Assembly: GCA_964016885.1 (NCBI GenBank)
Contig: OZ024754.1
Span: 37,696,001-37,760,000, forward strand
Direction of reading: 5' to 3'
Origin: Eledone cirrhosa
Lineage: Eukaryota
DNA: 64,000 nt
Both the position numbers and the translations under genes were made by a program. Positions 1 through 48,240 of this stretch are shown piece after piece; position 1 is the stretch's first letter, and the number at the start of each line of letters is the position of its first letter. The notes under the pieces were generated by a model, which saw only the letters and a program-made list of their open reading frames with translations, was not told where the DNA came from and made no database searches.

Positions 1-41
1 AGCTAAACAAAATTTACATAAATACATACATACATACATAC

Positions 42-624
42 ATGGTGCCTGCCAACTTGTTTTCGAGTACGGCCACTACTTTATAACCATGTCGGAGAAC
101 CCCTAGCGATGCGCTGAACAAGTGTGATTTTTTAGTCCAGCCAGCGACTTGATCACTCTGGTACAAACACTACACTTGTGACAATTATTGACACATAGTG
201 CTGGGCCCATGGTACCTTGTGATGACAAGTGCAGAGAGATCTCCAGATATAAAGCAATGCCTGTGCTATGAAGCTTTTATAGTGAGCAAAGGCACTGCAC
301 AAAGCCAGTCCCACTCTCTTAACCAAGATGTCTCATGGTCGGGTCGTTGGCGACTAAACTGGCAACCACCAGGGTTTCTTGGTGAGGAGGGTGACTTTGG
401 ACATCCTGCAGGACTAAAAACAAAACCTGTCAAAGGGCAAAGGAGCTCTTAAGAGTCAATGGCCATCCAAAATCACCGGGATAGATGACCCCTTAGCCTT
501 TGTCAAGGCAGAATTCTAGGAGAAGGAAAACTCTGATATAACACCTGCAACCCTGATGGTATCCAATGATGTTGACTTGTTCTTCTTTTTGGTAAATATC
601 ATCTTGGTTAAGAGAGTGGGACTG
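42..624 (-). mobile_element. Non-autonomous RTE-LINE-derived element with (TATG)n tail and inverted 5' part; copies at ~2446-3028, 6268-6852, 9058-9642, 12048-12632, 14833-15417, 17175-17759
   Basis: In the intact copies (e.g. 6268-6852) the minus strand ends in a C2H2-like CSVCTRVFKSLAGLKNHTCSAHR*, a short UTR and (ATGT)n, as in RTE ORF C-termini. The other half is the inverted version of 45085-45357. Confidence 0.7.
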
Positions 625-1633
625 ACATACATACATACATACATACATACATACATACATACATACATACATACATACATACATACATAAAACTTTATTC
701 GAATTCGTAGAGATGTCTGACTAAATACATATTTCATTTTACAAGAATCTGTAATAAGCAGCAAGGCTGAACACAAGGGCAGAAAAATCATTAAGGAAGT
801 CCCGAAGAAAAACGACGAGAAAGGTAAACAAAATTTACATACATACATCTTTTATTCGAATTCATAGAGATACCCGACTAAATACATAATTCATTTTACA
901 AGGATTTGCTACAAAGAGCCTGGCTGAACACATCCCCAGCAACATTATCGAAGTACCGAACGAAAACAATGAAAAAGGTAAACAAAATGTACATACATAC
1001 ATACATCTTTTAATCGAATTCGTAGAGGTATCCGACTAAATAGATTATTCATTTTACAAGGATTTGCTACAAAGAGCCAGGCAGAACACACCATCAACAA
1101 CATTATGGAAGTACCGATCGAAAATGATGAGAAAGGTAAACAAAATATACATACATACATACAAACATCTTTTATTCGAATTTGAAGAGATACCCGACTA
1201 AATACATAATTTATTTTACAAGGATTTGCTACAAACGTCATGGCTGAACACAACATCAACAACATTATTGAAGTACCGAACGAAAGCAATGAGAAAGGTA
1301 AACAAAATGTACATATATACATACATACATCTTTTATACGAATTCGTAGAGATACACGACTAAATACATTATTTATTTTACAAGGATTTGCCACAAGCAG
1401 CAAGGCTGAAGACAAGGGCACCAAAATCATTAAGGAAGTACCGAAGAAAAAGGACAAGAAAGGTAAACAAAATTTAAATGCATACATACATACATCTTTT
1501 ATTCGAATTCGTAGAGATACCCGACTAAATACTTAATTCATTATACAAGGATTTGCTACAAAGAGCCTGGCTGAACACATCCTCAGCAATTTTATCGAAG
1601 TACCGAACGAAAACAATGAGAAAGGTAAACAAA

Positions 1634-1666
<33 letters not shown>

Positions 1667-3899
1667 CATACATACATACATACATACATACATACATACA
1701 TACATACATCTTTTATTCGAATTCGTAGAGGTATCCAACTAAATACATTATTCATTTTACAAGGATTTGCTACAAACAACATGGCTGAACACAGCAAGAC
1801 CAGCAACATTAAGGAAGCAATGAAGAAAATCAGCGAGAAAGGTAAACAAAATTTACATACATACATACATACAAATATCTTTTCGAATTCGTAGAGATAT
1901 CTGACTAAATACATAATTCATTTTACAAGAATCTGCTATAATCAGCAAGGCTGAACACAAGGGCAGCAAAATCATTAAAGAAGTAGCGAAGAAAAACGAC
2001 AAGAAAGCTAAACAAAATTTACATAAATACATACAAAAATACATACATACATACATACATACATACATACATACATACATACATACAGATATACATACAT
2101 CTTTTATTCGAATTCGTAGAGGTATCCAACTAAATACATTATTCATTTTACAAGGATTTGCTACAAACAACATGGCTGAACACAGCAAGACCAGCAACAT
2201 TAAGGAAGCAATGAAGAAAATCAGCGAGAAAGGTAAACAAAATTTACATACATACATACATACAAAGATCTTTTCGAATTCGTAGAGATATCTGACTAAA
2301 TACATAATTCATTTTACAAGAATCTGCTATAATCAGCAAGGCTGAACACAAGGGCACCAAAATCATTAAAGGATTACCGAAGAAAAACGACAAGAAAGCT
2401 AAACAAAATTTACATAAATACATACATACATACATACATACATACATGGTGGCTGCCAACTCGTTTTCGAGTACGGCCACTACTTTATAACCATGTCGGA
2501 GAACCCCTAGCGATGCGCTGAACAAGTGTGATTTTTTAGTCCAGCCAGCGACTTGAACACTCTGGTACAAATACTACACTTGTGACAATTATTGACACAT
2601 AGTGCTGGGCCCATGGTACCTTGTGATGACAAGTGCAGAGAGATCTCCAGATATAAAGCAATGCCTGTGCTATGAAGCTTTTATAGTGAGCAAAGGCACT
2701 GCACAAAGCCAGTCCCACTCTCTTAACCAAGATGTCTCATGGTCGGGTCGTTGGTGACTAAACTGGCAACCCCACCAGGGTTTCTTGGTGAGGAGGGTGA
2801 CTTTGGACATCCTGCAGGACTAAAAACAAAACCTGTCAAAGGGCAAAGGAGCTCTTAAGAGTCAATGGCCATCCAAAATCACCGGGATAGATGACCCCTT
2901 AGCCTTTGTAAATGCAGAATTCTAGGAGAAGGAAAACTCTGATATAACACCTGCAACCCTGATGGTATCCAATGATGTTGACTTGTTCTTCTTTTTGGTA
3001 AATATCATCTTGGTTAAGAGAGTGGGACATACATACATACATACATACATACATACATACATACATACATACATACATACATACATACATACATACATAA
3101 AACTTTATTCGAATTCGTAGAGATGTTTGACTAAATACATATTTCATTTTACAAGAATCTGTAATAAGCAGCAAGGCTGAACACAAGGGCAGAAAAATCA
3201 TTAAGGAAGTCCCGAAGAAAAACGACGAGAAAGGTAAACAAACTTTACATACATACATCTTTTATTCGAATTCATAGAGATACCCGACTAAATACATAAT
3301 TCATTTTACAAGGATTTGCTACAAAGAGCATGGCTGAACACATCCCCAGCAACATTATCGAAGTACCGAACGAAAACAATGAGAAAGGTAAACAAAATGT
3401 ACATACATACATACATCTTTTAATCGAATTCGTAGAGGTATCCGACTAAATAGATTATTCATTTTAGAAGGATTTGCTACAAAGAGCCAGGCAGAACACA
3501 CCCTCAACAACATTATGGAAGTAGCGATCGAAAATAATGAGAAAGGTAAACAAAATATACATACATACATACATACATCTTTTATTCGAATTTGAAGAGA
3601 TACCCGACTAAATACATAATTTATTTTACAAGGGTTTGCTACAAACGTCATGGCTGAACACAACATCAACAACATTATTGAAGTACCGAACGAAAGCAAT
3701 GAGAAAGGTAAACAAAATGTACATATTTACATACATAGATCTTTTATACGAATTCGTAGAGATACACGACTAAATACATTATTTATTTTACAAGGATTTG
3801 CTACAAACGTCATGGCTGAACACAACATCAACAACATTATGGAAGTACCGCAGGAAAGCAATGAGAAAGGTAAACAAAATGTACATATATACATACATA

Positions 3900-4989
3900 T
3901 ATAATCAACAACAAAGAACGCTTAGAGCATAGGTATATCTTTACTTGCTGACAGTGTTTCGTCCACACTATAAGTGGGACTCATCAGAGCATAAAGAGTG
4001 ATTACATATTACACAAGCAATAACAAAACCAAGACAGAAGAATATAATGGGGATGCAATAAGTTGGGAGGGGTTTAAAGAGTAGAGTAAATAGAGTGTAG
4101 AAAATAAAATTGGAGGATAAAGAATAGTGAAATGTAAAAAAAATAAATAATAAACATTGAAGAAATAAAAAATAAACATTGAAAAATAAGCATTGAAAAA
4201 TAAGAGGTGCTATCAGTCACAGTTGGGCAGGGTGCTGTTAACAAACAGTTACATACAAGCATACGCATAAGCATGAGCACCCGCATGCAACCACACAATA
4301 AGCAGCCATATGCAACACATATAGTATAGACTAATACAAATAACATATCATGGACGAGTATGCAAAAGCTAAGCGATAAATGGTGGATATACAATGGGTA
4401 AAAATACAATGGGTAAAAGTAAGATAAACAAAGGATAAAAATAGATTAACCATAGATAAAAAATAGATTAACCATGGATAAGAGATAGAGAATAGATAAG
4501 GAATAGAAAGAAATAGATAAGATAGATAAGAGTAGATAAAAATAGATAAAAAATAGATAAAAAATAGATAAAAATAGATAAAAAATAGATAAAAAATAGA
4601 TAAAAAATAGATAAAAAATACATAAAAAATAGATTAAAAATAGATAAAAAATAGACAAATAATATATATAAAAAATATAAAATATAAAAAATATATATAT
4701 AAAATATACAGATAATAAAGATAAAGGGTAAAGAATAAATAAAATAGAATTATATAAAATAATATACAATGAAATAAAATAAAATAAAGTAAAGTGAGAT
4801 AGGATATATATTTTTTGAATATATTTCTTGAATATATCAGGGGCACACGAACGCCTTAAGTGTTACAGTCAGCCATATCACAACAATCAATGTTGATTAT
4901 ATTACGGCTCTGCCCTCAGACATCGAGCTAACCTTATACTGCCTATTGGATAAGTGGAGTGTTACACACTCCTAATCCCCTCCCTTATA
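3900..4989 (-). mobile_element. Penelope-like non-autonomous insertion into a (CATA)n tract of the array
   Basis: Unique ~1.09-kb AT-rich segment flanked by a duplicated TACATATATACATACATA (3882-3899 / 4990-5007). Carries a hammerhead motif and a short inverted TATAATCAACA...TGTTGATTATA. Confidence 0.6.
3946..3991 (-). ncRNA. Minimal type I hammerhead ribozyme motif
   Basis: Minus strand: UGCU-CUGAUGA-GUCC(CACUUAUAGUGU)GGAC-GAAAC-ACU-GUC-AGCA. Full catalytic core, stem I UGCU/AGCA, stem II GUCC/GGAC, GUC cleavage triplet. Confidence 0.75.
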
Positions 4990-5475
4990 TACATATATAC
5001 ATACATACATCTTTTATACGAATTCGTAGAGATACACGACTAAATACATTATTTATTTTACAAGGATTTGCTACAAACGTCATGGCTGAACACAACATCA
5101 ACAACATTATGGAAGTACCGAACGAAAGCAATGAGAAAGGTAAACAAAATGTACATATATACATACATACATATTTTATTCGAATTCGTAGAGGTATCCG
5201 ACTAAATACATAATTCATTTTACAAGGATTTGCTACAAGCAGCAAGGCTGAAGACAAGGGCACCAAAATCATTAAGGAAGTACCGAAGAAAAAGGACAAG
5301 AAAGGTAAACAAAATTTAAATGCATACATACATACATCTTTTATTCGAATTCGTAGAGATACCCGACTAAATACTTAATTCATTATACAAGGATTTGCTA
5401 CAAAGAGCCTGGCTGAACACATCCTCAGCAATTTTATCGAGGTACCGAACGAAAACAGTGAGAAAGGTAAACAAA

Positions 5476-5508
<33 letters not shown>

Positions 5509-8225
5509 CATACATACATACATACATACATCTTTTATTCGAATTCGTAGAGGTATCCAACTAAATACATTATTCATTTTACAAGGATTTGCTACAAACA
5601 ACATGGCTGAACACAGCAAGACCAGCAACATTAAGGAAGCAATGAAGAAAATCAGCGAGAAAGGTAAACAAAATTTACATACATACATACATACATACAA
5701 ACATCTTTTCGAATTCGTAGAGATATCTGACTAAATACATGATTCATTTTACAAGAATCTGCTATAATCAGCAAGGCTGAACACAAGGGCAGCAAAATCA
5801 TTAAAGAAGTAGCGAAGAAAAACGACAAGAAAGCTAAACAAAATTTACATAAATACATACAAAAATACATACATACATACATACATACATACATACATAC
5901 ATACATACATACATACATACATACATACATCTTTTATTCGAATTCGTAGAGGTATTCAACTAAATACATTATTCATTTTACAAGGATTTGCTACAAACAA
6001 CATGGCTGAACACAGCAAGACCAGCAACATTAAGGAAGCAATGAAGAAAATCAGCGAGAAAGGTAAACAAAATTTACATACATACATACAAACATCTTTT
6101 CGAATTCGTAGAGATATCTGACTAAATACATAATTCATTTTACAAGAATCTGCTATAATCAGCAAGGCTGAACACAAGGGCACCAAAATCATTAAAGGAT
6201 TACCGAAGAAAAACGACAAGAAAGCTAAACAAAATTTACATAAATACATACATACATACATACATACATGGTGGCTGCCAACTCGTTTTCGAGTACGGCC
6301 ACTACTTGATAACCATGTCGGAGAACCCCTAGCGATGCGCTGAACAAGTGTGATTTTTTAGTCCAGCCAGCGACTTGAACACTCTGGTACAAACACTACA
6401 CTTGTGACAATTATTGACACATAGTGCTGGGCCCATGGTACCTTGTGATGACAAGTGCAGAGAGATCTCCAGATATAAAGCAATGCCTGTGCTATGAAGC
6501 TTTTATAGTGAGCAAAGGCACTGCACAAAGCCAGTCCCATTCTCTTAACCAAGATGTCTTATGGTCGGGTCGTTGGCGACTAAACTGGCAACCCCACCAG
6601 GGTTTCTTGGTGAGGAGGGTGACTTTGGACATCCTGCAGGACTAAAAACAAAACCTGTCAAAGGGCAAAGGAGCTCTTAAGAGTCAATGGCCATCCAAAA
6701 TCACCGGGATAGATGACCCCTTAGCCTTTGTCAAGGCAGAATTGTAGGAGAAGGAAAACTCTGATATAACACCTGCAACCCTGATGGTATCCAATGATGT
6801 TGACTTGTTCTTCTTTTTGGTAAATATCGTCTTGGTTAAGAGAGTAGGACTGACATACATACATACATACATACATACATACATACATACATACATACAT
6901 ACATACATACATACATACATACATACATACATACATACATACATACATACATACATAAAACTTTATTCGAATTCGTAGAGATGTTTGACTTAATACATAT
7001 TTCATTTTACAAGAATCTGTAATAAGCAGCAAGGCTGAACACAAGGGCAGAAAAATCATTAAGGAAGTACCGAAGAAAAACGACGAGAAAGGTAAACAAA
7101 ATTTACATACATACATCTTTTATTCGAATTCATAGAGATACCCGACTAAATACATAATTCATTTTACAAGGATTTGCTACAAAGAGCATGGCTGAACACA
7201 TCCCCAGCAACATTATCGAAGTACCGAACGAAAACAATGAGAAAGGTAAACAAAATGTACATACATACATACATCTTTTAATCGAATTCGTAGAGGTATC
7301 CGACTAAATAGATTATTCATTTTACAAGGATTTGCTAAAAAGAGCCAGGCAGAACACACCCTCAACAACATTATGGAAGTACCGATCGAAAATAATGAGA
7401 AAGGTAAACAAAATATACATTCATACATACAAACATCTTTTATTCGAATTTGAAGAGATACCCGACTAAATAAATAATTTATTTTACAAGGATTTGCTAC
7501 AAACGTCATGGCTGAACACAACATCAACAACATTATTGAAGTACCGAACGAAAGCAATGAGAAAGGTAAACAAAATGTACATATATACATACATACATCT
7601 TTTATACGAATTCGTAGAGATACACGACTAAATACATTATTTATTTTACAAGGATTTGCCACAAACGTCATGGCTGAACACAACATCAACAACATTATGG
7701 AAGTACCGAACGAAAGCAATGAGAAAGGTAAACAAAATGTACATATATACATACATACATCTTTTATACGAATTCGTAAAGATACACGACTAAATACATT
7801 ATTTATTTTACAAGGATTTGCTACAAACGTCATGGCTGAACACAACATCAGCAACATTATGGAAGTACCGAACGAAAGCAATGAGAAAGGTAAACAAAAT
7901 GTACATATATACATACATACATATTTTATTCGAATTCGTAGAGGTATCCGACTAAATACATAATTCATTTTACAAGGATTTGCCACAAGCAGCAAGGCTG
8001 AAGACAAGGGCACCAAAATCATTAAGGAAGTACCGAAGAAAAAGGACAAGAAAGGTAAACAAAATTTAAATGCATACATACATACATCTTTTATTCGAAT
8101 TCGTAGAGATACCCGACTAAATACTTAATTCATTATACAAGGATTTGCTACAAAGAGCCTGGCTGAACACATCCTCAGCAATTTTATCGAAGTACCGAAC
8201 GAAAACAATGAGAAAGGTAAACAAA

Positions 8226-8258
<33 letters not shown>

Positions 8259-9022
8259 CATACATACATACATACATACATACATACATACATACATACA
8301 TCTTTTATTCGAATTCGTAGAGGTATCCAACTAAATACATTATTCATTTTACAAGGATTTGCTACAAACAACATGGCTGAACACAGCAAGACCAGCAACA
8401 TTAAGGAAGCAATGAAGAAAATCAGCGAGAAAGGTAAACAAAATTTACATACATACATACATACAAAGATCTTTTCGAATTCGTAGAGATATCTGACTAA
8501 ATACATAATTCATTTTACAAGAATCTGCTATAATCAGCAAGGCTGAACACAAGGGCAGCAAAATCATTAAAGAAGTAGCGAAGAAAAACGACTAGAAAGC
8601 TAAACAAAATTTACATAAATACATACAAAAATACATACATACATACATACATACATACATACATACATACATACATACATACATACAGATATACATACAT
8701 CTTTTATTCGAATTCGTAGAGGTATCCAACTAAATACATTATTCATTTTACAAGGATTTGCTACAAACAACATGGCTGAACACAGCAAGACCAGCAACAT
8801 TAAGGAAGCAATGAAGAAAATCAGCGAGAAAGGTAAACAAAATTTACATACATACATACAAAGATCTTTTCGAATTCGTAGAGATATCTGACTAAATACA
8901 TAATTCATTTTACAAGAATCTGCTATAATCAGCAAGGCTGAACACAAGGGCACCAAAATCATTAAAGGATTACCGAAGAAAAACGACAAGAAAGCTAAAC
9001 AAAATTTACATAAATACATACA

Positions 9023-9056
<34 letters not shown>

Positions 9057-11165
9057 CATGGTGGCTGCCCACTCGTTTTCGAGTACGGCCACTACTTTAT
9101 AACCATGTCGGAGAACCCCTAGCGATGCGCTGAACAAGTGTGATTTTTTAGTCCAGCCAGCGACTTGAACACTCTGGTACAAACACTACACTTGTGACAA
9201 TTATTGACACATAGTGCTGGGCCCATGGTACCTTGTGATGACAAGTGCAGAGAGATCTCCAGATATAAAGCAATGCCTGTGCTATGAAGCTTTTATAGTG
9301 AGCAAAGTCACTGCACAAAGCCAGTCCCACTCTCTTAAACAAGATGTCTCATGGTCGGGTCGTTGGCGACTAAACTGGCAACCCCACCAGGGTTTCTTGG
9401 TGAGGAGGGTGACTTTGGACATACTGAAGGACTAAAAACAAAACCTGTCAAAGGGCAAAGGAGCTCTTAAGAGTCAATGGCCATCCAAAATCACCGGGAT
9501 AGATGACCCCTTAGCCTTTGTCAAGGCAGAATTCTAGGAGTAGGAAAACTCTGATATAACACCTGCAACCCTGATGGTATCCAATGATGTTGACTTGTTC
9601 TTCTTTTTGGTAAATATCATCTTGGTTAAGAGAGTGGGACTGACATACATACATACATACATACATACATACATACATACATACATACATACATACATAC
9701 ATACATACATACATACATACATACATACATACATAAAACTTTATTCGAATTCGTAGAGATGTCTGACTAAATACATATTTCATTTTACAAGAATCTGTAA
9801 TAAGCAGCAAGGCTGAACACAAGGACAGAAAAATCATTAAGGAAGTACCGGAGAAAAACGACGAGATAGGTAAACAAAATTTACATACATACATCTTTTA
9901 TTCGAATACATAGAGATACCCGACTAAATACATAATTCATTTTACAAGGATTTGCTACAAAGAGCATGGCTGAACACATCCCCAGCAACATTATCGAAGT
10001 ACCGAACGAAAACAATGAGAAAGGTAAACAAAATGTACATACATACATACATACATCTTTTAATCGAATTCGTAGAGGTATCCGACTAAATAGATTATTC
10101 ATTTTACAAGGATTTGCTACAAAGAGCCAGGCAGAACACACCCTCAACAACATTATGGAAGTACCGATCGAAAATAATGAGAAAGGTAAACAAAATATAC
10201 ATACATACATACGTACATCTTTTATTCGAATTTGAAGAGATACCCGACTAAATACATAATTTATTTTACAAGGATTTGCTACAAACGTCATGGCTGAACA
10301 CAACATCAACAACATTATTGAAATACCGAACGAAAGCAATGAGAAAGGTAATCAAAATGTACATATATACATACATACATCTTTTATACGAATTCGTAGA
10401 GATACACGACTAAATACATTATTTATTTTACAAGGATTTGCTACAAACGTCATGGCTGAACACAACATCAACAACATTATGGAAGTACCGAACGAAAGCA
10501 ATGAGAAAGGTAAACAAAATGTACATATATACATACATACATCTTTTATACGAATTCGTAGAGATACACGACTAAATACATTATTTATTTTACAAGGATT
10601 TGCTACAAACGTCATGGCTGAACACAACATCAATAACATTATGGAAGTACCGAACGAAAGCAATGAGAAAGGTAAACAAAATGTACATATATACATACAT
10701 ACATCTTTTATACGAATTCGTAGAGATACACGACTAAATACATTATTTATTTTACAAGGATTTGCTACAAACGTCATGGCTGAACACAACATCAACAACA
10801 TTATGGAAGTACCGAACGAAAGCAATGAGAAAGGTAAACAAAATGTACATACATACATACATATTTTATTCGAATTCGTAGAGGTATCCGACTAAATAAA
10901 TAATTCATTTTACAAGGATTTGCTACAAGCAGCAAGGCTGAAGACAAGGGCACCAAAATCATTAAGGAAGTACCGAAGAAAAAGGACGAGAAAGGTAAAC
11001 AAAATTTAAATGCATACATACATACATCTTTTATTCGAATTCGTAGAGATACCCGACTAAATACTTAATTCATTATACAAGGATTTGTTACAAAGAGCCT
11101 GGCTGAACACATCCTCAGCAATTTTATCGAAGTACCGAACGAAAACAATGAGAAAGGTAAACAAA

Positions 11166-11198
<33 letters not shown>

Positions 11199-11584
11199 CA
11201 TCTTTTATTCGAATTCGTAGAGGTATCCAACTAAATACATTATTCATTTTACAAGCATACTTACATTTTACATGCATACTTACATTTTACAAGGATTTGC
11301 TACAAACAACATGGCTGAACACAGCAAGACCAGCAACATTAAGGAAGCAATGAAGAAAATCAGCGAGAAAGGTAAACAAAATTTACATACATACATACAT
11401 ACATACAAAGATCTTTTCGAATTCGTAGAGATATCTGACTAAATACATAATTCATTTCACAAGAATCTGCTATAATCAGCAAGGCTGAACACAAGGGCAG
11501 CAAAATCATTAAAGAAGTAGCGAAGAAAAACGACAAGAAAGCTAAACAAAATTTACATAAATACATACAAAAATACATACATAC

Positions 11585-11615
<31 letters not shown>

Positions 11616-13613
11616 CATACATACATACATACATACATACATACATGCATACATACATACAGATATACATACATCTTTTATTCGAATTCGTAGAGGTATC
11701 CAACTAAATACATTATTCATTTTACAAGGATTTGCTACAAACAACATGGCTGAACACAGCAAGACCAGCAACATTAAGGAAGCAATGAAGAAAATCAGTG
11801 AGAAAGGTAAACAAAATTTACATACATACATACATACAAAGATCTTTTCGAATTCGTAGAGATATCTGACTAAATACATAATTCATTTTACAAGAATCTG
11901 CTATAATCAGCAAGGCTGAACACAAGGGCACCATAATCATTAAAGGATTACCGAAGAAAAACGACAAGAAAGCTAAACAAAATTTACATAAATACATACA
12001 TACATACATACATACATACATACATACATACATACATACATACATACATGGTGGCTGCCAACTCGTTTTCGAGTACGGCTACTACTTTATAACCATGTCG
12101 GAGAACCCCTAGCGATGCGCTGAACAAGTGTGATTTTTTAGTCCAGCCAGCGACTTGAACACTCTGGTACAAACACTACACTTGTGACAATTATTGACAC
12201 ATAGTGCTGGGCCCATGGTACCTTGTGATGACAAGTGCAGAGAGATCTCCAGATATAAAGCAATGCCTGTGCTATGAAGCTTTTATAGTGAGCAAAGGCA
12301 CTGCACAAAGCCAGTCCCACTCTCTTAACCAAGATGTCTCATGGTCGGGTCGTTGGCGACTAAACTGGCAACCCCACCAGGGTTTCTTGGTGAGGAGGGT
12401 GACTTTGGACATCCTGCAGGACTAAAAACAAAACCTGTCAAAGGGCAAAGGAGCTCTTAAGAGTCAATGGCCATCCAAAATCACCGGGATAGATGACCCC
12501 TTAGCCTTTGTCAAGGCAGAATTCTAGGAGAAGGAAAACTCTGATATAACACCTGCAACCCTGATGGTATCCAATGATGTTGACTTGTTCTTCTTTTTGG
12601 TAAATATCATCTTGGTTAAGAGAGTGGGACTGACATACATACATACATACATACATACATACATACATAAAACTTTATTCGAATTCGTAGAGATGTTTGA
12701 CTAAATACATATTTCATTTTACAAGAATCTGTAATAAGTAGCAAGGCTGAACACAAGGGCAGAAAAATCATTAAGGAAGTACCGAAGAAAAACGACGAGA
12801 AAGGTAAACAAAATTTACATACATACATCTTTTATTCGAATTCATAGAGATACCCGACTAAATACATAATTCATTTTACAAGGATTTGCTACAAAGAGCA
12901 TGGCTGAACACATCCCCAGCAACATTATCGAAGTACCGAACGAAAACAATGAGAAAGGTAAACAAAATGTACATACATACATACATCTTTTAATCGAATT
13001 CGTAGAGGTATCCGACTAAATAGATTATTCATTTTACAAGGATTTGCTACAAAGAGCCAGGCAGAACACACCCTCAACAACATTATGGAAGTACCGATCG
13101 AAAATAATGAGAAAGGTAAACAAAATATACATACATACATACAAACATCTTTTATTCGAATTTGAAGAGATACCCGACTAAATACATAATTTATTTTACA
13201 AGGATTTGCTACAAACGTCATGGCTGAACACAACATCAACAACATTATTGAAGTACCGAACGAAAGCAATGAGAAAGGTAAACAAAATGTACATATATAC
13301 ATACATACATATTTTATTCGAATTCGTAGAGGTATCCGACTAAATACATAATTCAATTTACAAGGATTTGCTACAAGCAGCAAGGCTGAAGACAAGGGCA
13401 CCAAAATCATTAAGGAAGTACCGAAGAAAAAGGACAAGAAAGGTAAACAAAATTTAAATGCATACATACATACATCTTTTATTCGAATTCGTAGAGATAC
13501 CCGACTAAATACTTAATTCATTATACAAGGATTTGCTACAAAGAGCCTGGCTGAACACATCCTCAGCAATTTTATCGAAGTACCGAACGAAAACAATGAG
13601 AAAGGTAAACAAA

Positions 13614-13645
<32 letters not shown>

Positions 13646-14369
13646 CTTTTATTCGAATTCGTAGAGGTATCCAACTAAATACATTATTCATTTTACAAGG
13701 ATTTGCTACAAACAACATGGCTGAACACAGCAAGACCAGCAACATTAAGGAAGCAATGAAGAAAATCAGCGAGAAAGGTAAACAAAATTTGCATACATAC
13801 ATACATACAAACATCTTTTCGAATTCGTAGAGATATCTGACTAAAAACATAATTCATTTTACAAGAATCTGCTATAATCAGCAAGGCTGAACACAAGGGC
13901 AGCAAAATCATTAAAGATGTAGCGAAGAAAAACGACAAGAAAGCTAAACAAAATTTACATAAATACATACAAAAATACATACATACATACATACATACAT
14001 ACATACATACATACATACATACATCTTTTATTCGAATTCGTAGAGGTATTCAACTAAATACATTATTCATTTTACAAGGATTTGCTACAAACAACATGGC
14101 TGAACACAGCAAGACCAGCAACATTAAGGAAGCAATGAAGAAAATCAGCGAGAAAGGTAAACAAAATTTACATACATACATACATACATACAAAGATCTT
14201 TTCGAATTCGTAGAGATATCTGACTAAATACATAATTCATTTCACAAGAATCTGCTATAATCAGCAAGGCTGAACACAAGGGCAGCAAAATCATTAAAGA
14301 AGTAGCGAAGAAAAACGACAAGAAAGCTAAACAAAATTTACATAAATACATACAAAAATACATACATAC

Positions 14370-14400
<31 letters not shown>

Positions 14401-16398
14401 CATACATACATACATACATACATACATACATGCATACATACATACAGATATACATACATCTTTTATTCGAATTCGTAGAGGTATCCAACTAAATACATTA
14501 TTCATTTTACAAGGATTTGCTACAAACAACATGGCTGAACACAGCAAGACCAGCAACATTAAGGAAGCAATGAAGAAAATCAGTGAGAAAGGTAAACAAA
14601 ATTTACATACATACATACATACAAAGATCTTTTCGAATTCGTAGAGATATCTGACTAAATACATAATTCATTTTACAAGAATCTGCTATAATCAGCAAGG
14701 CTGAACACAAGGGCACCATAATCATTAAAGGATTACCGAAGAAAAACGACAAGAAAGCTAAACAAAATTTACATAAATACATACATACATACATACATAC
14801 ATACATACATACATACATACATACATACATACATGGTGGCTGCCAACTCGTTTTCGAGTACGGCTACTACTTTATAACCATGTCGGAGAACCCCTAGCGA
14901 TGCGCTGAACAAGTGTGATTTTTTAGTCCAGCCAGCGACTTGAACACTCTGGTACAAACACTACACTTGTGACAATTATTGACACATAGTGCTGGGCCCA
15001 TGGTACCTTGTGATGACAAGTGCAGAGAGATCTCCAGATATAAAGCAATGCCTGTGCTATGAAGCTTTTATAGTGAGCAAAGGCACTGCACAAAGCCAGT
15101 CCCACTCTCTTAACCAAGATGTCTCATGGTCGGGTCGTTGGCGACTAAACTGGCAACCCCACCAGGGTTTCTTGGTGAGGAGGGTGACTTTGGACATCCT
15201 GCAGGACTAAAAACAAAACCTGTCAAAGGGCAAAGGAGCTCTTAAGAGTCAATGGCCATCCAAAATCACCGGGATAGATGACCCCTTAGCCTTTGTCAAG
15301 GCAGAATTCTAGGAGAAGGAAAACTCTGATATAACACCTGCAACCCTGATGGTATCCAATGATGTTGACTTGTTCTTCTTTTTGGTAAATATCATCTTGG
15401 TTAAGAGAGTGGGACTGACATACATACATACATACATACATACATACATACATAAAACTTTATTCGAATTCGTAGAGATGTTTGACTAAATACATATTTC
15501 ATTTTACAAGAATCTGTAATAAGTAGCAAGGCTGAACACAAGGGCAGAAAAATCATTAAGGAAGTACCGAAGAAAAACGACGAGAAAGGTAAACAAAATT
15601 TACATACATACATCTTTTATTCGAATTCATAGAGATACCCGACTAAATACATAATTCATTTTACAAGGATTTGCTACAAAGAGCATGGCTGAACACATCC
15701 CCAGCAACATTATCGAAGTACCGAACGAAAACAATGAGAAAGGTAAACAAAATGTACATACATACATACATCTTTTAATCGAATTCGTAGAGGTATCCGA
15801 CTAAATAGATTATTCATTTTACAAGGATTTGCTACAAAGAGCCAGGCAGAACACACCCTCAACAACATTATGGAAGTACCGATCGAAAATAATGAGAAAG
15901 GTAAACAAAATATACATACATACATACAAACATCTTTTATTCGAATTTGAAGAGATACCCGACTAAATACATAATTTATTTTACAAGGATTTGCTACAAA
16001 CGTCATGGCTGAACACAACATCAACAACATTATTGAAGTACCGAACGAAAGCAATGAGAAAGGTAAACAAAATGTACATATATACATACATACATATTTT
16101 ATTCGAATTCGTAGAGGTATCCGACTAAATACATAATTCAATTTACAAGGATTTGCTACAAGCAGCAAGGCTGAAGACAAGGGCACCAAAATCATTAAGG
16201 AAGTACCGAAGAAAAAGGACAAGAAAGGTAAACAAAATTTAAATGCATACATACATACATCTTTTATTCGAATTCGTAGAGATACCCGACTAAATACTTA
16301 ATTCATTATACAAGGATTTGCTACAAAGAGCCTGGCTGAACACATCCTCAGCAATTTTATCGAAGTACCGAACGAAAACAATGAGAAAGGTAAACAAA

Positions 16399-16430
<32 letters not shown>

Positions 16431-19400
16431 CTTTTATTCGAATTCGTAGAGGTATCCAACTAAATACATTATTCATTTTACAAGGATTTGCTACAAACAA
16501 CATGGCTGAACACAGCAAGACCAGCAACATTAAGGAAGCAATGAAGAAAATCAGCGAGAAAGGTAAACAAAATTTGCATACATACATACATACAAACATC
16601 TTTTCGAATTCGTAGAGATATCTGACTAAAAACATAATTCATTTTACAAGAATCTGCTATAATCAGCAAGGCTGAACACAAGGGCAGCAAAATCATTAAA
16701 GATGTAGCGAAGAAAAACGACAAGAAAGCTAAACAAAATTTACATAAATACATACAAAAATACATACATACATACATACATACATACATACATACATACA
16801 TACATACATCTTTTATTCGAATTCGTAGAGGTATTCAACTAAATACATTATTCATTTTACAAGGATTTGCTACAAACAACATGGCTGAACACAGCAAGAC
16901 CAGCAACATTAAGGAAGCAATGAAGAAAATCAGCGAGAAAGGTAAACAAAATTTACATACATACATACATACAAACATCTTTTCGAATTCGTAGAGATAT
17001 CTGACTAAATACATAATTCATTTTACAAGAATCTGCTATAATCAGCAAGGCTGAACACAAGGGCACCAAAATCATTAAAGGATTACCGAAGAAAAACGAC
17101 AAGAAAGCTAAACAAAATTTACATAAATACATACATACATACATACATACATACATACATACATACATACATACATGGTGGCTGCCAACTCGTTTTCGAG
17201 TACGGCCACTACTTTATAACCATGTCGGAGAACCCCTAGCGATGCGCTGAACAAGTGTGATTTTTTAGTCCAGCCAGCGACTTGAACACTCTGGTACAAA
17301 CACTACACTTGTGACAATTATTGACACATAGTGCTGGGCCCATGGTACCTTGTGATGACAAGTGCAGAGAGATCTCCAGATATAAAGCAATGCCTGTGCT
17401 ATGAAGCTTTTATAGTGAGCAAAGGCACTGCACAAAGCCAGTCCCACTCTCTTAACCAAGACGTCTCATGGTCGGGTCGTTGGCGACTAAACTGGCAACC
17501 CCACCAGGGTTTCTTGGTGAGGAGGGTGACTTTGGACATCCTGCAGGACTAAAAACAAAACCTGTCAAAGGGCAAAGGAGCTCTTAAGAGTCAATGGCCA
17601 TCCAAAATCACCGGGATAGATGACCCCTTAGCCTTTGTCAAGGCAGAATTCTAGGAGAAGGAAAACTCTGATATAACACCTGCAACCCTGATGGTATCCA
17701 ATGATGTTGACTTGTTCTTCTTTTTGGTAAATATCATCTTGGTTAAGAGAGTGGGACTGACATACATACATACATACATACATACATACATACATACATA
17801 CATACATACATACATACATACATACATACATACATACATACATACATACATAAAACTTTATTCGAATTCGTAGAGATGTCTGACTAAATACATATTTCAT
17901 TTTACAAGAATCTGTAATAAGCAGCAAGGCTGAACACAAGGGCAGAAAAATCATTAAGGAAGTACCGAAGAAAAACGACGAGAAAGGTAAACAAAATTTA
18001 CATGCATACATCTTTTATTCGAATTCATAGAGATACCCGACTAAATACATAATTCATTTTACAAGGATTTGCTACAAACGTCATGGCTGAACACAACATC
18101 AACAACATTATGGAAGTACCGAACGAAAGCAATGAGAAAGGTAAACAAAATGTACATATATACATACATACATCTTTTATACGAATTCGTAGAGATACAC
18201 GACTAAATACATTATTTATTTTACAAGGATTTGCTACAAGCAGCAAGGCTGAACACAAAGACACCAAAATGATTGAGGAAGTACCGAAGAAAAAGGACAA
18301 GAAAGGTAAACAAAATTTACATACATACACACATAACATCTTTTATTCGAATTCGTAGAGATACCCGACTAAATAACTAATTCATTTTACAAGGATTTGC
18401 TACAAAGAGCCTGGCTGAACACATCCTCTACAACACTATGGAAGTACCGAACGAAAACAACGAGAAAGGTAAACAAAATGTACATACATACATACATCTT
18501 TTATTCAAATTCGTAGACATAACCGACTAAATACATTATTAATTTTACAAGGATTTGCTACAAGCAGCAAGGTTGAAGACAGGGGCACCAAAATGATTAA
18601 GGAAGTACCGAAGAAAAAGGACAAAAAAGGTAAACCAAATTTATATACATACATACTTACATCTTTTATTCGAATTCGTAGAGGTATCCGACTAAATACA
18701 TTATTCATTTTACAAGGATTTGCTACAAGCAGCAAGGCTGAACACAAGAGCACCAAAATCATTAAGGAAGTACCGAAGAAAAAGGACAAGAAAGGTAAAC
18801 AAAATTTACATACATACATACATACATCTTTTATTGGAATTCGTAGAGATACCCGACTAAATACATAACTCATTTTACAAGGATTTGCTACAAGGAGCAT
18901 GGCTGAACACACCCTCACCAACACTATGGAAGTACCGAACGAAAACAATGAGAGAGGTAAACAAAATGTAGATATATACATATATACATCTTTTATTCGA
19001 ATTCTTAGAGATACCCGACTAAATACATAATTACATTTACAAGGATTTGCGACAAAGAGTCTGGCTGAGCACATCCTCAATAACACTATGGAAGTACCGA
19101 ACGAAAACAATGAGAGAGGTTAACAAAATGTACATATATACATACATACATCTTTTATTCGAATTCGTAGAGATACACGACTAAATACATAATTTATTTT
19201 ACAAGGATTTCCTACAAACGTCATGGCTGAACACAACATCAACAACATTATGGAAGTACCGAACGCAAGCAATGAGAAAGGTAAACAAAATGTACATATA
19301 TACATTCATCTTTTATACGAATTCGCAGAGATACACGACTAAATACATTATTTATTTTACAAGGGTTTGCTACAAGCAGCAAGGCTGAAGACAAGGGCAC

Positions 19401-21451
19401 CGAAATCATTAAGGAAGTACCGAAGAAAAAGGACAAGAAAGGTAAACAAAATTTACATACATACACACATAACATCTTTTATACGAATTCGTAGAGATAC
19501 CCGACTAAATACATAATTCATTTTACAAGGATTTGCTACAAAGAGACTGGTTAAAGACATCCTCAACAACACTATGGAAGTACCGAACGAAAACAATGAG
19601 AAAGGTAAACAAAATGTACATACATACATACATCTTTTATTCGAATTCGTAGAGGTATCCGACTAAATACATTATTCATTTTACAAGGATTTGCTACAAG
19701 CAGCAAGGCTGAACACAAGGACACCAAAATGATTGAGGAAGTACCGAAGAAAAAGGACAAGAAAGGTAAACAAAATTTACATACATACACACATAACATC
19801 TTTTATTCGAATTCGTAGAGATACCCGACTAAATAACTAATTCATTTTACAAGGATTTGCTACAAGGAGCATGGCTGAACACATCCTCTACAACACTATG
19901 GAAGTACGGAACGAAAACAACGAGAAAGGTAAACAAAATGTACATACATACATACATCTTTTATTCAAATTCGTAGAGGTAACCGACTAAATACATTATT
20001 AATTTTACAAGGATTTGCTACAAGCAGCAAGGTTGAAGGCAGGGGCACCAAAATGATTAAGGAAGTACCGAAGAAAAAGGACAAGAAAGGTAAACAAAAT
20101 TTACATACATACATACATCTTTTATTGGAATTCGTAGAGATACCCGACTAAATACATAACTCATTTTACAAGGATTTGCTACAAGGAGCATGGCTGAACA
20201 CATCCTCACCAACACTATGGAAGTACCGAACGAAAACAATGAGAGAGGTAAACAAAATGTAGATATATACATATATACATCTTTTATTCGAATTCGTAGA
20301 GATACCCGACTAAATACATAATTACTTTTACAAGGATTTTCTACAAAGAGTCTGGCTGAGCACATCCTCAATAACACTATGGAAGTACCGAACGAAAACA
20401 ATGAGAAAGGTTAACAAAATGTACATATATACATACATACATCTTTTATTCGAATTCGTAGAGATACACGACTAAATACATTATTTATTTTACAAGGATT
20501 TGCTACAAACGGCATGGCTGAACACAACATCAACAACATTATGGAAGTACCGAACGAAAACAATGAGAAAGGTAAACAAAATGTACATACATACATCCTT
20601 TATTCGAATTCGTAGAGCTATCCGACTAAATACATTATTAATTTTACAAGGAATATCTACAAGCAGCAAGGCTGAACACAAGGACACCAAAATAATTGAG
20701 GAAGTACCGATGAAAAAGGACAAGAAAGGTAAACAAATTTACATACATACATACATACATCTTTTATTCGAATTCGTAGAGATAGCCGACTAAATACATA
20801 ATTCATTTTACAAGGATTTGCTACAAAGAGCCTGGCTGAACACATCCTCAACAACACTATGGAAGTACCGAACGAAAACAATGAGAAAGGTAAATAAAAT
20901 GTACATGCATACATACATCTTTTATTCGAATTCGTAGAGGTATCCGACTAAACACATTATTCATTTTACAAGGATTTGCTACAAGCAGCAATGCTGAACA
21001 CAAGGACACCAATATAATTGAGGAAGTACCGAAGAAAAAGGACAAGAAATGTAAACAAAATTTACATACATCCATACATACATCTTTTATTCGAATTCGT
21101 AGAGATACCCGATTAATACATAATTCATTTTACAAGGATTTGCTACAAAGAGCCTGGCTGAACAAATCCTCAACAACATTATGGAAGTACCGATGGAAAA
21201 CAATGAGAAAGTTAAACAAAATGTACATACATATATACATCTTTTATTCGAATTCGTAGAGGTATCCGACTAAATACATTATTCATTTTACAAGGATTTG
21301 CTACAAGCAGCGAGGCTGAACCCAACAACACCAACATCATTAAGGATGTACCGAAGAAAAATGACGAGAAAGGTAATCAAAATTTACATACATACATCTT
21401 TTATTCGAATTCGTAGAGATATCCGACTAAACACATTATTCATTTTAGAAG

Positions 21452-21795
21452 GATTTGCTACAAACCGGATGATTGAAGACAACGACACTAACAAGATTAA
21501 GGAAGTACCGATGGATAACAACGAGAAAGGTAAACGAAATTTATTCCGTTGTAGCTACAGACGAAACCGAAATTACAAATCGCATTTCTCTTGGAGTTGC
21601 GAACTCAATGATGATTTATTTAATTGTAATAAAATGGCAAGAAAAAAACCCCTCCGTTAGCTACATGAACAGAATGAAGCTACTCTGGGACGAAATACAT
21701 CCGGAGATAAATCATTTCACAGCCAAACAAATACGCCAACAAGCGATGTTTGTTGAACGTAAAAATAAGATAAATATTATTAATTGTAAGTCCCC
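21452..21795 (+). pseudogene. Frameshifted 5' ORF fragment resembling R4/Dong-clade (RLE-type) non-LTR retrotransposon N-terminus, continuous with the last array monomer
   Basis: Reads ...SWSCELNDDLFNCNKMARK / NPSVSYMNRMKLLWDEIHPEINHFTAKQIRQQAMFVERK. Fits the recalled W-x-x-E-x-N...CY...GYM-x-RMK-x-LW...P...T-x-x-x-LR-x-Q motif. No database search done. Confidence 0.5.
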
Positions 21796-21796
21796 C

Positions 21797-22160
21797 TAAT
21801 CTGATCAGCTAGGTACCGGAAGCTATCAACCACTTCTATAGAACCCACCTGCATTGGAAAAATGCGATTACTACTGCCAACTTTCCCTGTACATCTACTG
21901 CATACGTAGTTTACCCTACCTGTTAGTTTGCCTGCTATCCCCCTACATTTCTTGTGTACCCAAGATCTGCAATGCGTACATCTTATGGAATTTATGTCAG
22001 TTCCTTTCTTACTTATCGAACATGGCCATTTCACCGATGGAATCAGAGTTTTGTCCTCTTATCTACTTATCAACACTTTTGTTTTAGCTATGTTCACTCT
22101 CAGTCCTCTTGATTCCAACTGCTGTTTCCATAGCCAGAATTTTTTCTCTACTGATTCTGC
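21797..22160 (-). mobile_element. RTE-clade LINE fragment (RT C-terminal region with Cys/His finger), truncated by a deletion
   Basis: KWPCSISKKGTDINSIRCTHCRSWVHKKCRGI...CSRC...VVDSFRYL; same sequence as 55010-55380. Confidence 0.85.
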
Positions 22161-23528: not shown

Positions 23529-23889
23529 TTTACACTTTTTTCCTAATATCTTGTCCGTATGTGGTTGACGGCTGAGAAGAAAGAGTAATCATATTCATAT
23601 ATTCATTCACTTTTCAGAAATTGCAATGTCTGAAGAAGATCAAGGCGGAAAGAAGGAACAGAAGAAAGTAACAATCCGCTGGTTTGAACGCTCAGAATTG
23701 CCATTAATTTTCTTCACCCCTGTGATGCCCTTGTCCCAGATACTCTTGCATTACTACGTGGACTGGCGAATAGGAAAGAATTACTATCGAAAGCAAAATA
23801 CCGTCTTCTCTACGTCTTGTAACCGTCGCTTCCAGTTCTCAAAAAATCAACATAAGGTAAGATGAAAGATATTAGGAAAAAAGTGTAAA
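23529..23889. repeat. Perfect 24-bp inverted repeat bracketing the first coding exon
   Basis: TTTACACTTTTTTCCTAATATCTT (23529-23552) / AAGATATTAGGAAAAAAGTGTAAA (23866-23889); also present in copy 2 (~56930 / ~57264). Confidence 0.9.
23626..23856 (+). CDS. SLC46/PCFT-like MFS transporter, copy 1, first coding exon
   Basis: ttttcag acceptor at 23617, ATG at 23626, MSEEDQGG...ELPLIFF...LLHYYVDWRI...C...NQHK, then AAG|GTAAGA (phase 0). Joins VQ of the next exon, giving the SLC46-typical 'xVQ' after TM1/loop 1. Confidence 0.8.
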
Positions 23890-28528: not shown

Positions 28529-29118
<590 letters not shown>

Positions 29119-30914: not shown

Positions 30915-31764
30915 GTGCAACGTTTGACAGCTTTATGGATAACAGATATGTTAGCTTTGGAATCCTTTCTGAGATTTTTTACAATAGTCGTAATACATTT
31001 ACTGAGCGAAGTATATGGTCGCAAATTCGGCATGCTGGTGTCTTTAAGCGGCACTATCATGAAAATCGTTTTAAGTGCAATGACGATCTACTATATACTT
31101 CCATTGGAGGTCTTATTTGTAGCCAGCGCTATTAATGGCATCACTGGTGGACCTGCGAGCTTTATCACTTGTGCTGTGTCACAGATTACCGATACGTACC
31201 CGCACGAGGAAAATAGTTGCCGTCAATTTATAAAAGCTCAAAATCTTTCATTTGGAATAGCCGGCCTTTTTACAATTTATTTCGGCTTAATCATAGAAAT
31301 CTTTGGCTATTTCTCCGCTTGCGTATTTTTGCTCCCTTTAGCTGTACTCAATATAGTCATCATTCTACACCTTCCAGATAACTCTACACAGAAGGAAGTC
31401 GATTGGAACTTTTCTAAAATTAAAACGTCGTTTATAAAGATATGGAGCGTAATGACTATTAGGAAACGGTTGTTGTTGTTCTTTTTCATATCAGCCTCAC
31501 CCATTAGTTATATGCCTCTTGGAGGACAGACTTTCTATACCACACAATTACTTATTAACAGACCATTTTGCACCAGCATTTTCTTCACTGGATTTACTTT
31601 GGCTATTTCCGCTTTCACTTTTTTAACACCAAATTACTACTCAGACCGACTGAATAAACCAGGTTTTTCGGTCAATACTATAATTGCTGGAAATCTGTTT
31701 GTCGGATTCCTTAGCAGTCTTATCATTACAATAGCAGCAAAAAGAAATACATATTATGATGCAG
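30915..31764 (+). CDS. SLC46/PCFT-like MFS transporter, copy 1, coding exon 2 (850 nt)
   Basis: Polypyrimidine ttttttag| acceptor and GCAG|GTATAA donor. Multi-TM ORF with SEVYGRK (MFS motif A-like), LPL..L...GITGG, ITDT, LPD. Size close to the large exon 2 of vertebrate SLC46A1. Confidence 0.88.
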
Positions 31765-34565: not shown

Positions 34566-34719
34566 GTTATCTCTATGCCTTGTTCACTATGAATTCATTT
34601 GGTACAACACTAATGTTACCTCTACTCAATACGATATATTTGAAAACATTCACATACTTTCCTGGTGCTGTATTTTGCCCCTATGCCGCAATCCTTTTTA
34701 TTGCTACAGTCATTCAAAT
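34566..34719 (+). CDS. SLC46/PCFT-like transporter, coding exon 4 (final exon not located)
   Basis: ctttag| acceptor, AT|GTAAGT donor. GYLYALFTMNSFGTTLMLPLLNTIYLKTFTYFPGAVF... matches SLC46 'N.IY..T....PG..F'. Confidence 0.85.
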
Positions 34720-42942: not shown

Positions 42943-43159
42943 AAAAAAAAAGAAACAAAAAACAAAACAAAAGGAATCCTAGTTCAAATTTTGTCATTAA
43001 CAAAAGAAAAAAAAAAAGTTAATGAATCAGATCTAAACAGATTCTTAGTATTTTTCTTTCCGCCATTTTTTTGCGACAGTTAGATCAAGAACAACGCTAT
43101 TGCTCGAGAATTTACGTTTCAATTTTTTTTCCAATTGAAAACGCAACAAGTCACACATA

Positions 43160-43214
<55 letters not shown>

Positions 43215-43709
43215 GCGCACCGCACACATACACACACACACACACATATACATACACACATACACACACACACGCACACATGCACACATATATACACACA
43301 CACGCACACACATAGATATATACACCATCTCCTCCAATTGGTAAAATAATATTGACGAAAGGTAATTCCGTCAATATTATTTTACCAATTGCTGGCCTTG
43401 TGCCAAAAGTAGAAATAATTATTTTACCAAACAATGGACTGGGGTAATTGCTGTCCTTGTGCCAAAAGTAGAAATATTATTTTACCAAACATCTCAGCAA
43501 GCAGCTGTATGTAAGAAAATCAATGGAGAAGGTACGCAACTGACATATTATTTCGCTAACTAAACATTTCCTTCGATGCGAATTAAAATTCCCAATATAC
43601 AAAGAAAGGAAATAGAAAAATAATAGAAAATAAAACCAAAATTCGGATAATTTTCGTCCATGCTGACCGTCTACAATTAATATAATTTTAAAAGAATTTT
43701 ACAGAACTG

Positions 43710-44169
<460 letters not shown>

Positions 44170-44170
<1 letters not shown>

Positions 44171-44390
44171 AATTTATGCGAATTTGTAGGGATATCCGAC
44201 TAAATACATAATTCATTTTACAAGGATTTGCTACAAACAACATAGCTGAACGCAACAACACCAACAACATTAAGGAAGTAGAGAAGGAAAACAACAAGAA
44301 AGGTAAACAAAATTTACATACAAACATACATACATACATACATACATACATACATACATACATACATACATACATACATACATACATACA

Positions 44391-44421
<31 letters not shown>

Positions 44422-44560
44422 TTTATTCGAATTCGTAGAGGGATCTGACTAAATACATTATACATTTTACAAGGATTTGCTACAAACAACATGGCTGAAC
44501 ACAGCAAGACCAGCAACATTAAGGAAGCAGCGAAGAAAATCAGCGAGAAAGGTAAACAAA

Positions 44561-44593
<33 letters not shown>

Positions 44594-44742
44594 CAAACAA
44601 ACATCTTTTCGAATTCGTAGAGATATCTGACTAAATACATAATTCATTTTACACGAATCTGCTATAATCAGCAAGGCTGAACACAAGGGCACCAAAATCA
44701 TTAAAGAAGTACCGAAGAAAAACGACAAGAAAGCTAAACAAA

Positions 44743-44775
<33 letters not shown>

Positions 44776-45409
44776 CATACATACATACATACATACATGG
44801 TGGCTGCCAACTCGTTTTCGAGTACGGCCACTACTTTATATCCATGTAGGAGAACCCCTACTGATGCGCTAAACGAGTGTGACTTTTCAGTCCAGCCAGC
44901 GACTTGAAAACTCGGGTACAAACACTACACTTGTGACAATTATTGACACATAGTGCTGGGCCAATGGTACCATGTCACGACAAGTGCAGAGGGATCTCCA
45001 GATATAAAGCAATGCCTGTGCCGTGAAGCTTTTATAGTGAGCAAAGGCACTGCACAAAGCCAGTCCCACTCTCTTAACCAAGATGATATTTACCAAAAAG
45101 AAGAACAAGTCAACATCATTGGATACCATCAGAGTTGCAGGTGTTATATCAGAGTTTTCCTTCTCCTAGAATTCTGCCTTGACAAACGCTAAGGGGTCAT
45201 CTCTCACGGTGATTTTGGATGGCCATTGACTCTTAAGAGCTCCTTTGCCCTTTGACAGGTTTTGTTTTTAGTCCTGCAGGATGTCCAAAGTCACCCTCCT
45301 CACCAAGCAACCTTGGTGGGGTTGCCAGTTTAGTCGCCAACGCCCCGACCATGAGACAGGTTGTACTGGGATACATGTTACCAGTAGCACCAACAGGTGA
45401 CCTGACATA

Positions 45410-45440
<31 letters not shown>

Positions 45441-46471: not shown

Positions 46472-46555
<84 letters not shown>

Positions 46556-46748
46556 ACACGCACACACACAGATACATACATACATGCGTGCATGTATGCA
46601 TGCATGCATACATACATAAATACATACATACATACATACATACATAGAGTGTAAGTGTGTGTGTGTGTACATACATGCATACATGCATACACACCCATAC
46701 ACACACAGACGCACACACATACAGACACACACAGACACACGCACATGC

Positions 46749-46806
<58 letters not shown>

Positions 46807-47164
46807 ACACACACACACACACACGCGCGCACAGACACACACACAGACACTCAAATTTATGCGAATTTGTAGAGATATCCGACTAAATACATAATTCATT
46901 TTACAAGGATTTGCTACAAACAACATGGCTGAACACAGCAAGACCAGAAACATTAAGGAAGCAGCGAAGAAAAGCAGCGAGAAAGGTAAACAAAATTTAC
47001 ATACATACATACATACATACAAACATCTTTTCGAATTCGTAGAGATATCTGACTAAATACATAATTCATTTTACACGAATCTGCTATAATCAGCAAGGCT
47101 GAACACAAGGGCACCAAAATCATTAAAGAAGTACCGAAGAAAAACGACAAGAAAACTAAACAAA

Positions 47165-47197
<33 letters not shown>

Positions 47198-48209: not shown

Positions 48210-48240
<31 letters not shown>

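Follow-up and report, generated by a model that had tools for sequence, protein, structure and literature searches.

Proteins built from tandemly repeated exons are familiar from titin PEVK, NBPF/Olduvai and the Dscam clusters, and satellite DNA derived from transposons is likewise known and is non-coding. Exonised pieces of long interspersed nuclear elements (LINEs) have also been described already, as in Lyosin, an L1 ORF1–MYL4 fusion that carries an exonised LINE open reading frame (ORF) (PMC12129022). Here we describe a locus of the octopus Eledone cirrhosa, entered through a 64,000-nucleotide window of contig OZ024754.1 (contig positions 37696001–37760000; the genome is 3.0 Gb), in which short open cassettes copied from the 5′ end of a dispersed retrotransposon form long arrays in front of the exons of a predicted SLC46-like transporter. 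The mutation pattern of the cassettes shows, statistically, selection for an intact reading frame with amino-acid change favoured. On balance we favour the reading that these tandem copies are spliced in runs as in-frame exons, giving the transporter a long, charged, cytosolic N-terminal tail.

With titin PEVK, NBPF and Dscam the locus shares many short symmetric tandem exons, copy-number variation among paralogs and higher-order repeats; the units of those proteins come from host exons, whereas the putative exons here come from the 5′ end of a mobile element, with the element's target microsatellite as intron. With transposon-derived satellites it shares a head-to-tail amplified transposon fragment and higher-order structure; those satellites are non-coding, whereas the present array shows frame-specific selection. 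The likeness to Lyosin is that a piece of a retrotransposon ORF, from an element without long terminal repeats (non-LTR), would be spliced in frame onto a host gene. Lyosin has a single domain-sized exon under purifying selection, whereas the piece here has 25–26 codons, carries the element's start codon, is present as 6–240 putative exons per gene and shows an excess of amino-acid change (PMC12129022). Literature searches, with most subscription papers outside their reach, returned no description of the locus, nor of any case in which the start of a retrotransposon had multiplied into hundreds of exons under selection.

The window carries two arrays with a unit of ~162 nt. A profile search for cassette units through 424 kb around the window gave 366 matches, all on the forward strand and in six groups, which belong to six tandem paralogous genes on one strand (S1–S6). 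The 360 units that could be parsed comprise 205 cassettes of 78 nt, 154 of 75 nt and one of 77 nt (S1, 6; S2, 240; S3, 44; S4, 32; S5, 12; S6, 26), with an AAG acceptor in 355 and donors that are GT in 318, CT in 39 and other in three. Among the six unparsed units, one is a partial intron duplication at 11211, and five make up three rearranged exons of 51, 126 and 129 nt, each in frame and open. All cassettes are symmetric phase 1-1, any subset of them preserving the frame; 182 of the 360 have an in-frame ATG, and 196 distinct peptides are encoded. A 27-mer across an array-specific junction matches the genome 171 times, each time at this locus, and the DNA between the arrays consists of segmental duplicates that are 90–98% identical.

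Positions 1–21540 of the window hold 92 cassettes, including one at 20651 (49 of 78 nt and 43 of 75 nt; 78 GT, 13 CT and one TT donor) and positions 44225–53325 hold another 44, of 75 or 78 nt only, in agreement with the ~140 units that a first-pass annotation of the window had estimated for both arrays. The cassette lengths of 75 and 78 nt and the peptides that it quoted were recovered on parsing, the single internal stop that it noticed near 8593 is a TAG at 8593–8595, in a CT-donor cassette and the only one among the 360, and its CATA steps in spacer length are visible in 246 of the 325 spacers below 250 nt (minimum 78, median 87), which share one class modulo 4. The span 1–21540 that it gave for the first array does contain cassettes, and the array itself begins ~38 kb upstream of the window. 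Two minus-strand frames of the cassettes are also nearly open, with a stop in 16/360 and 22/360, so that openness alone is weak evidence of coding.

The last array unit and its 3′ flank have dispersed counterparts on numerous contigs, at 88–90% identity over the full 402–406-nt query, and an element-specific 26-mer has 632 exact, dispersed matches. The element starts ~200 nt upstream of the unit, and a (CATA)n run is found within 200 nt upstream in 26 of 30 sampled dispersed copies. One long ORF of the element starts at the ATG inside the cassette, in the cassette frame, and its database relatives are single ORFs of 1,142 and 1,151 amino acids. RVT_1 scored above cut-off in three of four ORF pieces, zf-RVT scored below cut-off, and no LTRs were seen; CxxC...H...C and RHD/RPD-like motifs, candidates for a C-terminal CCHC and a restriction-like endonuclease, were read by eye in the ORF. 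The body of the element still terminates arrays S2, S3 and S6. Each unit is a copy of the 5′ end of this dispersed non-LTR retrotransposon, which inserts in (CATA)n and is Dong/R4-like, the clade label being given by resemblance.

R4/Dong elements encode a reverse transcriptase and a restriction-enzyme-like (REL) endonuclease and insert in ribosomal DNA or microsatellites, with (TAA)n as target in most insects, molluscs and cnidarians (PMC7998251), and a Dong element has been noted in Octopus bimaculoides (PMC9115989). The present element is like them in its single ORF with reverse transcriptase and in its insertion into microsatellites (PMC7998251, PMC9115989); it differs in having (CATA)n rather than (TAA)n as target (PMC7998251), and the array retains just the first ~20 codons. 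Long copies of related retrotransposons lie inside the S2 and S6 arrays (contig ~37679580–37683080 and 37848100–37850080, by tblastn), and the CATA spacers therefore still serve as landing sites.

A parsimony tree built from 288 unique units was used to assess selection; it has 560 exon changes, of which 464 are non-synonymous, 94 synonymous and two stop-making. When the expectation is taken from the same types of mutation inside the exon, 18.5 stop-making changes would be due against the two seen (P 1.7e-6), and with intron rates 24.6–29; class-based, tree-free counts gave two stops against 10.7–16.2 expected, and four of five control frames had no significant stop deficit (P 0.07–0.99). Dispersed copies of the element were sampled (n=90) with a pattern that lies upstream and takes no account of the cassette; 85 were parsed, and the other five, all visibly deleted or truncated, were excluded. 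By the same method, 61 of the 65 dispersed copies of 78 nt gave five stops against 3.3 expected (Fisher versus array P 0.014). Frameshifts are present in 1/360 array units versus 9/85 parsed dispersed copies (P 2e-6; per substitution P 4e-4), and splice dinucleotides have changed five times against 25.7 expected. The first-pass proposal of coding mini-exons within a satellite was to be judged by a neutral comparison of stops and frameshifts; its core passes that comparison, both being scarcer than spacers and dispersed copies would predict, and the proposal as a whole is partly supported.

The few lesions are concentrated in one class. GT-donor cassettes (n=318) have no internal stops and no frameshifts; CT-donor cassettes (n=39) have one internal stop, one frameshift and all three ACG acceptors of the locus. 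Because the sole internal stop and the sole frameshift both fall among them, the CT-donor cassettes are best read as dead exons; the class had been raised at first as a counter-point to splicing, and it is real (39/360), if better explained in this way. Extension of the CT cassettes to the next donor was rejected, being open in just 3/39.

Synonymous changes occur at about the intron rate (0.9 of expected), and non-synonymous changes at 1.3 of expected, rising to 1.8 on internal branches. Relative to the closest dispersed copy, the proportion of non-synonymous differences (pN) among 106 unique cassettes is 0.19 and that of synonymous differences (pS) 0.065, with intron divergence of ~6.5%; as evidence of positive selection such figures are indicative, because the copies are non-independent and gene conversion inflates tree counts, which tells against reading too much into them. 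Acceptor position −15 carries TTA in 149/360 array units and TAA in 81/85 dispersed copies, a change from TAA to TTA that is a shift toward a stronger pyrimidine tract. Taking together the three readings in which the cassettes code, we regard coding as very likely.

Four exons, A–D, follow the arrays, with compatible phases that join them into a membrane protein, and they are complete in S1, S2, S3 and S6. Exon B matches MFS clusters at 0.98 (Atlas); its best protein match in a full HMMER scan is O. bimaculoides XP_014771056 (40%), and further named matches resemble PCFT and SLC46A3. A profile of 83 exon B homologs matches PCFT (PDB 7bc6) with an E-value of 2.8e-120, the next MFS match being at 1.2e-12, and a model of exon B (predicted local distance difference test 89) has 7bc6 as its top, weak Foldseek match (E 1.1e-3). 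A Pfam scan of exons A–C and one cassette gave nothing significant, and a word-based protein search with exon B gave no matches. Judged from the profile, match and model of exon B, exons A–D make up a predicted SLC46/PCFT-like MFS transporter. It is like the SLC46/PCFT family in that exon B is nearest to PCFT by profile and fold match, and unlike it in being highly diverged, in forming six tandem paralogs and in its predicted giant N-terminal repeat tail. Indels among paralogs of exons A and C are all multiples of three, and five copies of exon B show no stop or frameshift.

The arrays lie on the same strand as the transporter exons, between a 5′ block common to all six genes and a phase-1 exon A, and we therefore consider fusion of the cassettes to the transporter likely. 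The common block contains a CCGCCATTTT motif, possibly YY1-like, and a candidate leader exon. An upstream ATGGAGAAG-GT was considered as a start exon and rejected, as it is in phase 0 and its ATG is absent in S4 and S6. In five genes the first cassette holds the first in-frame ATG, and in S3 the second cassette does, with a context of A/G-nn-ATG-G; thus, where the first-pass annotation had seen no start exon, the first cassette itself would supply the start, and partner exons exist downstream. The exon A acceptor is phase 1 and open in S1, S2, S3 and S6, the frame staying open through exon A's own ATG; in S4 this ATG is gone and the in-frame phase-1 AAG acceptor is kept. An outgroup paralog, 43% identical, lies head-to-head on the other strand (exon B at contig 37625155–37625949); it has no array, and its exon A has ~20 ENGKE-like repeats, an in-exon charged N-terminal tail at the same position, where the O. 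bimaculoides relative has a short DVPKDED repeat.

If all AG–GT cassettes are joined, the predicted tails have 154 (S1), 5,094 (S2), ~1,070 (S3), ~815 (S4), ~310 (S5) and ~670 (S6) amino acids and are rich in K, E and N. Acidic and basic cassette types alternate in S3 and S4, and the large arrays have a net charge near zero. The N-terminus of MFS proteins is cytosolic; a secreted or surface repeat protein was rejected, no signal exon having been seen.

The first step of the proposed history is shown by the sequence: the element inserted in sense orientation ahead of exon A, bringing a cryptic AG that lies 17 nt 5′ of its ATG and a GT ~60 nt 3′ of it. The resulting stretch of 78 nt would then be spliced by the host as an exon of phase 1-1 carrying its own start codon. 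The outcome of the next step, units multiplied head to tail and a whole gene duplicated to six copies, is likewise seen; unequal exchange of a truncated copy flanked by (CATA)n would be its mechanism, with each microsatellite now contributing to an intron of 78–190 nt. On the statistics given above, stops, frameshifts and splice-site losses were purged and amino-acid change favoured, with cassettes diverging from a mildly basic ancestor into acidic 75-nt and basic 78-nt types. Copies with dead splice sites would be skipped with the frame intact. From MFS topology the product is predicted to be a disordered polyampholyte tail, acting as a spacer, a trafficking module or a condensate or binding module rather than as an enzyme. 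In its fullest form, which we hold to be evenly poised between true and false, the proposal is that a start codon donated by the retrotransposon together with two cryptic splice sites constitutes a self-contained exon module; that the target microsatellite acts as a copy-number dial; and that these exons, as many as 200 in one gene, code for an SLC46 tail that is cytosolic, charge-patterned, under positive selection and up to ~5,000 residues long, a de novo giant repeat domain derived wholly from the 5′ end of a mobile element.

The arrays could instead be a non-coding satellite, grown from the retrotransposon 5′ end in a first intron, with its motifs and frame kept as element fossils by homogenisation. 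All of the exon-like features are indeed ancestral: 69 of the 90 dispersed copies pass the same test for AG, GT and open frame, so that acceptor, donor, ATG and frame are inherited from the element and alone prove nothing. The splice-like motifs and open frame first put forward as signs of coding are accordingly present and inherited, and openness, AG/GT borders and length in threes were rejected as stand-alone evidence. Higher-order repeats and further insertions in the spacers are typical of satellites, and the ratio of non-synonymous to synonymous rates (dN/dS) among exon B paralogs is near 1 (30 non-synonymous and 11 synonymous changes vs 28.7 and 11.0 expected), which also counts against a selected tail. 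Homogenisation, however, cannot favour one frame, as the deficits of stops, frameshifts and splice-site changes do; the rearranged exons are in frame, pN is three times pS, and pS matches the intron divergence. The neutral decay without frame preference expected of a non-coding transposon-derived satellite was not found here, and we judge this explanation improbable. Slightly less probable again is a separate soluble charged repeat protein, which would end either at a stop, such as the one at 20973 in S2, or in the retained element after read-through, with the transporter starting at the ATG of exon A. Exon A has its own ATG in S1, S2, S3 and S6, and the S2 junction stop would close the repeat ORF before exon A, yet the other five genes have no junction stop, exon A of S4 keeps an in-frame acceptor after losing its ATG, and the arrays were duplicated along with the transporter exons. 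The repetitive charged protein suspected at first gains support as coding and K/E/N-rich; given that the arrays sit in six tandem genes before SLC46-like exons, it would more probably be the tail of a transporter than stand alone as a repeat protein.

Combinatorial use, with one or a few cassettes per mRNA giving a repertoire of short N-terminal transporter variants, Dscam-like in effect, is unlikely, though less so than either of these. The uniform phase, the in-frame ATGs, the variety of peptides and the excess of amino-acid change would all suit it, and dead copies and the junction-stop cassette at 20973 need skipping in any case. Were hundreds of exons optional, a stop in any one of them would carry little cost, yet stops are nearly absent, and we therefore favour inclusion of most copies in most transcripts over a choice of one among many. 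Introns of at least 78 nt would not force exclusion, and the regular alternation of acidic and basic types in S3 and S4 suggests function as a chain. The combinatorially spliced peptide repertoire of the first-pass annotation is on this evidence conceivable and less favoured.

Several observations weigh against the spliced transporter tail that we prefer. Splicing and translation of the cassettes are inferred, not observed; AAG is an uncommon acceptor; and the in-frame link to exon A rests on the 8 nt before exon A's ATG. In S2 the cassette at 20973 gives a junction stop and that at 21137 has lost its donor, so S2 must skip the former or is decaying or truncated. In S4 the start of exon A is gone and a stop comes nine codons early, S5 has C and D only and adjoins an assembly gap, and some of the six genes may be decaying. 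The stop deficit per gene is modest (S2, 1 vs 5.7, P 0.023; S6, P 0.045; others not significant), one control frame has a weaker deficit of its own (29 vs 44.4, P 0.009), and the terminal branches inside 1–21540 show one stop against 1.8 expected, the youngest changes being without power. No database protein with such repeats was found by a weak search, a 15-row cassette alignment against longer proteins at an E-value of 10. Contigs from three runs of one study, whose kind is not on record, were aligned to 21090–22160; they cross cassette–spacer borders unspliced and cover the flank, with no GT..AG joint listed. They behave as DNA, may represent the source sample and are uninformative on expression or splicing.

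If the preferred reading is true, the locus shows how a few steps can lead from mobile DNA to a new protein domain of giant size. Neutral source copies still in the genome are a built-in control, making exon birth and selection directly measurable. Repeat maskers and gene finders would hide such arrays, and similar ones may be missed in other repeat-rich animal genomes. The array, the outgroup paralog and the O. bimaculoides relative together raise the question of why this transporter lineage repeatedly grows charged N-terminal repeats.

Table 1. Features of the cassette arrays and transporter genes within the 64,000-nt window (window coordinates unless stated).
Feature	Position	Strand	Remarks
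591-nt repeat within CATA spacer	40..630		7 copies in window, 98–100% identity; marks 2.4–3.9 kb higher-order repeats
S2 array, downstream part, 92 of 240 cassettes	746..21529	+	array start ~38 kb before window, contig position 37658223
Example 75-nt phase 1-1 cassette, AAG acceptor, GTAAAC donor	903..977	+	last 17 nt of element leader and first ~20 ORF codons
Example CT-donor cassette	1930..2007	+	likely dead exon carried in higher-order repeats
Cassette ending in T	20973..21050	+	stop codon at any junction to next cassette or exon A
Cassette with lost donor (TT)	21137..21211	+	
Retained retrotransposon body after last S2 cassette	21530..21798	+	91–92% identical to dispersed copies
Transporter exon A of S2	23618..23856	+	phase-1 acceptor, in frame with cassettes, open
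Transporter exon B of S2	30915..31764	+	283 amino acids, MFS/SLC46-like helices
Transporter exon C of S2	34566..34719	+	
Transporter exon D of S2, to stop codon	36762..36807	+	AATAAA at 36886
CCGCCATTTT motif, candidate promoter element	43060..43069	+	upstream of all six arrays
Candidate 35-nt non-coding leader exon (AG...GTAAG), inferred	43705..43739	+	upstream of all six arrays
S3 array, 44 cassettes	44225..53325	+	mostly acidic 75-nt alternating with basic 78-nt
Retained retrotransposon body behind S3 array	53326..53758	+	433 nt, 90% identical to dispersed copies
Transporter exon A of S3	57019..57254	+	
Transporter exon B of S3, start	63809..64000	+	continues beyond window end

The arrays and their surroundings have some further features. 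A copy of the upstream leader region, with the end of the candidate 35-nt exon and its donor, lies inside the S3 array at 46408–46870, and a 1.1-kb unrelated repeat with an AT-rich tandem tail breaks the S2 array at 3899–4985. The assembly gap at S5 is directly 3′ of its array (contig ~37812066–37812266); the gap size and the missing exons A–B may be artefacts. A broken transporter remnant with several stops is present on the minus strand at contig 37997144–37997882. At 29701–29981 part of exon B recurs in inverted, hairpin-like form; S1–S4 all carry this duplicate ~1 kb upstream of exon B, and other long palindromes are found nearby at 25032–25290 and 28416–28990.

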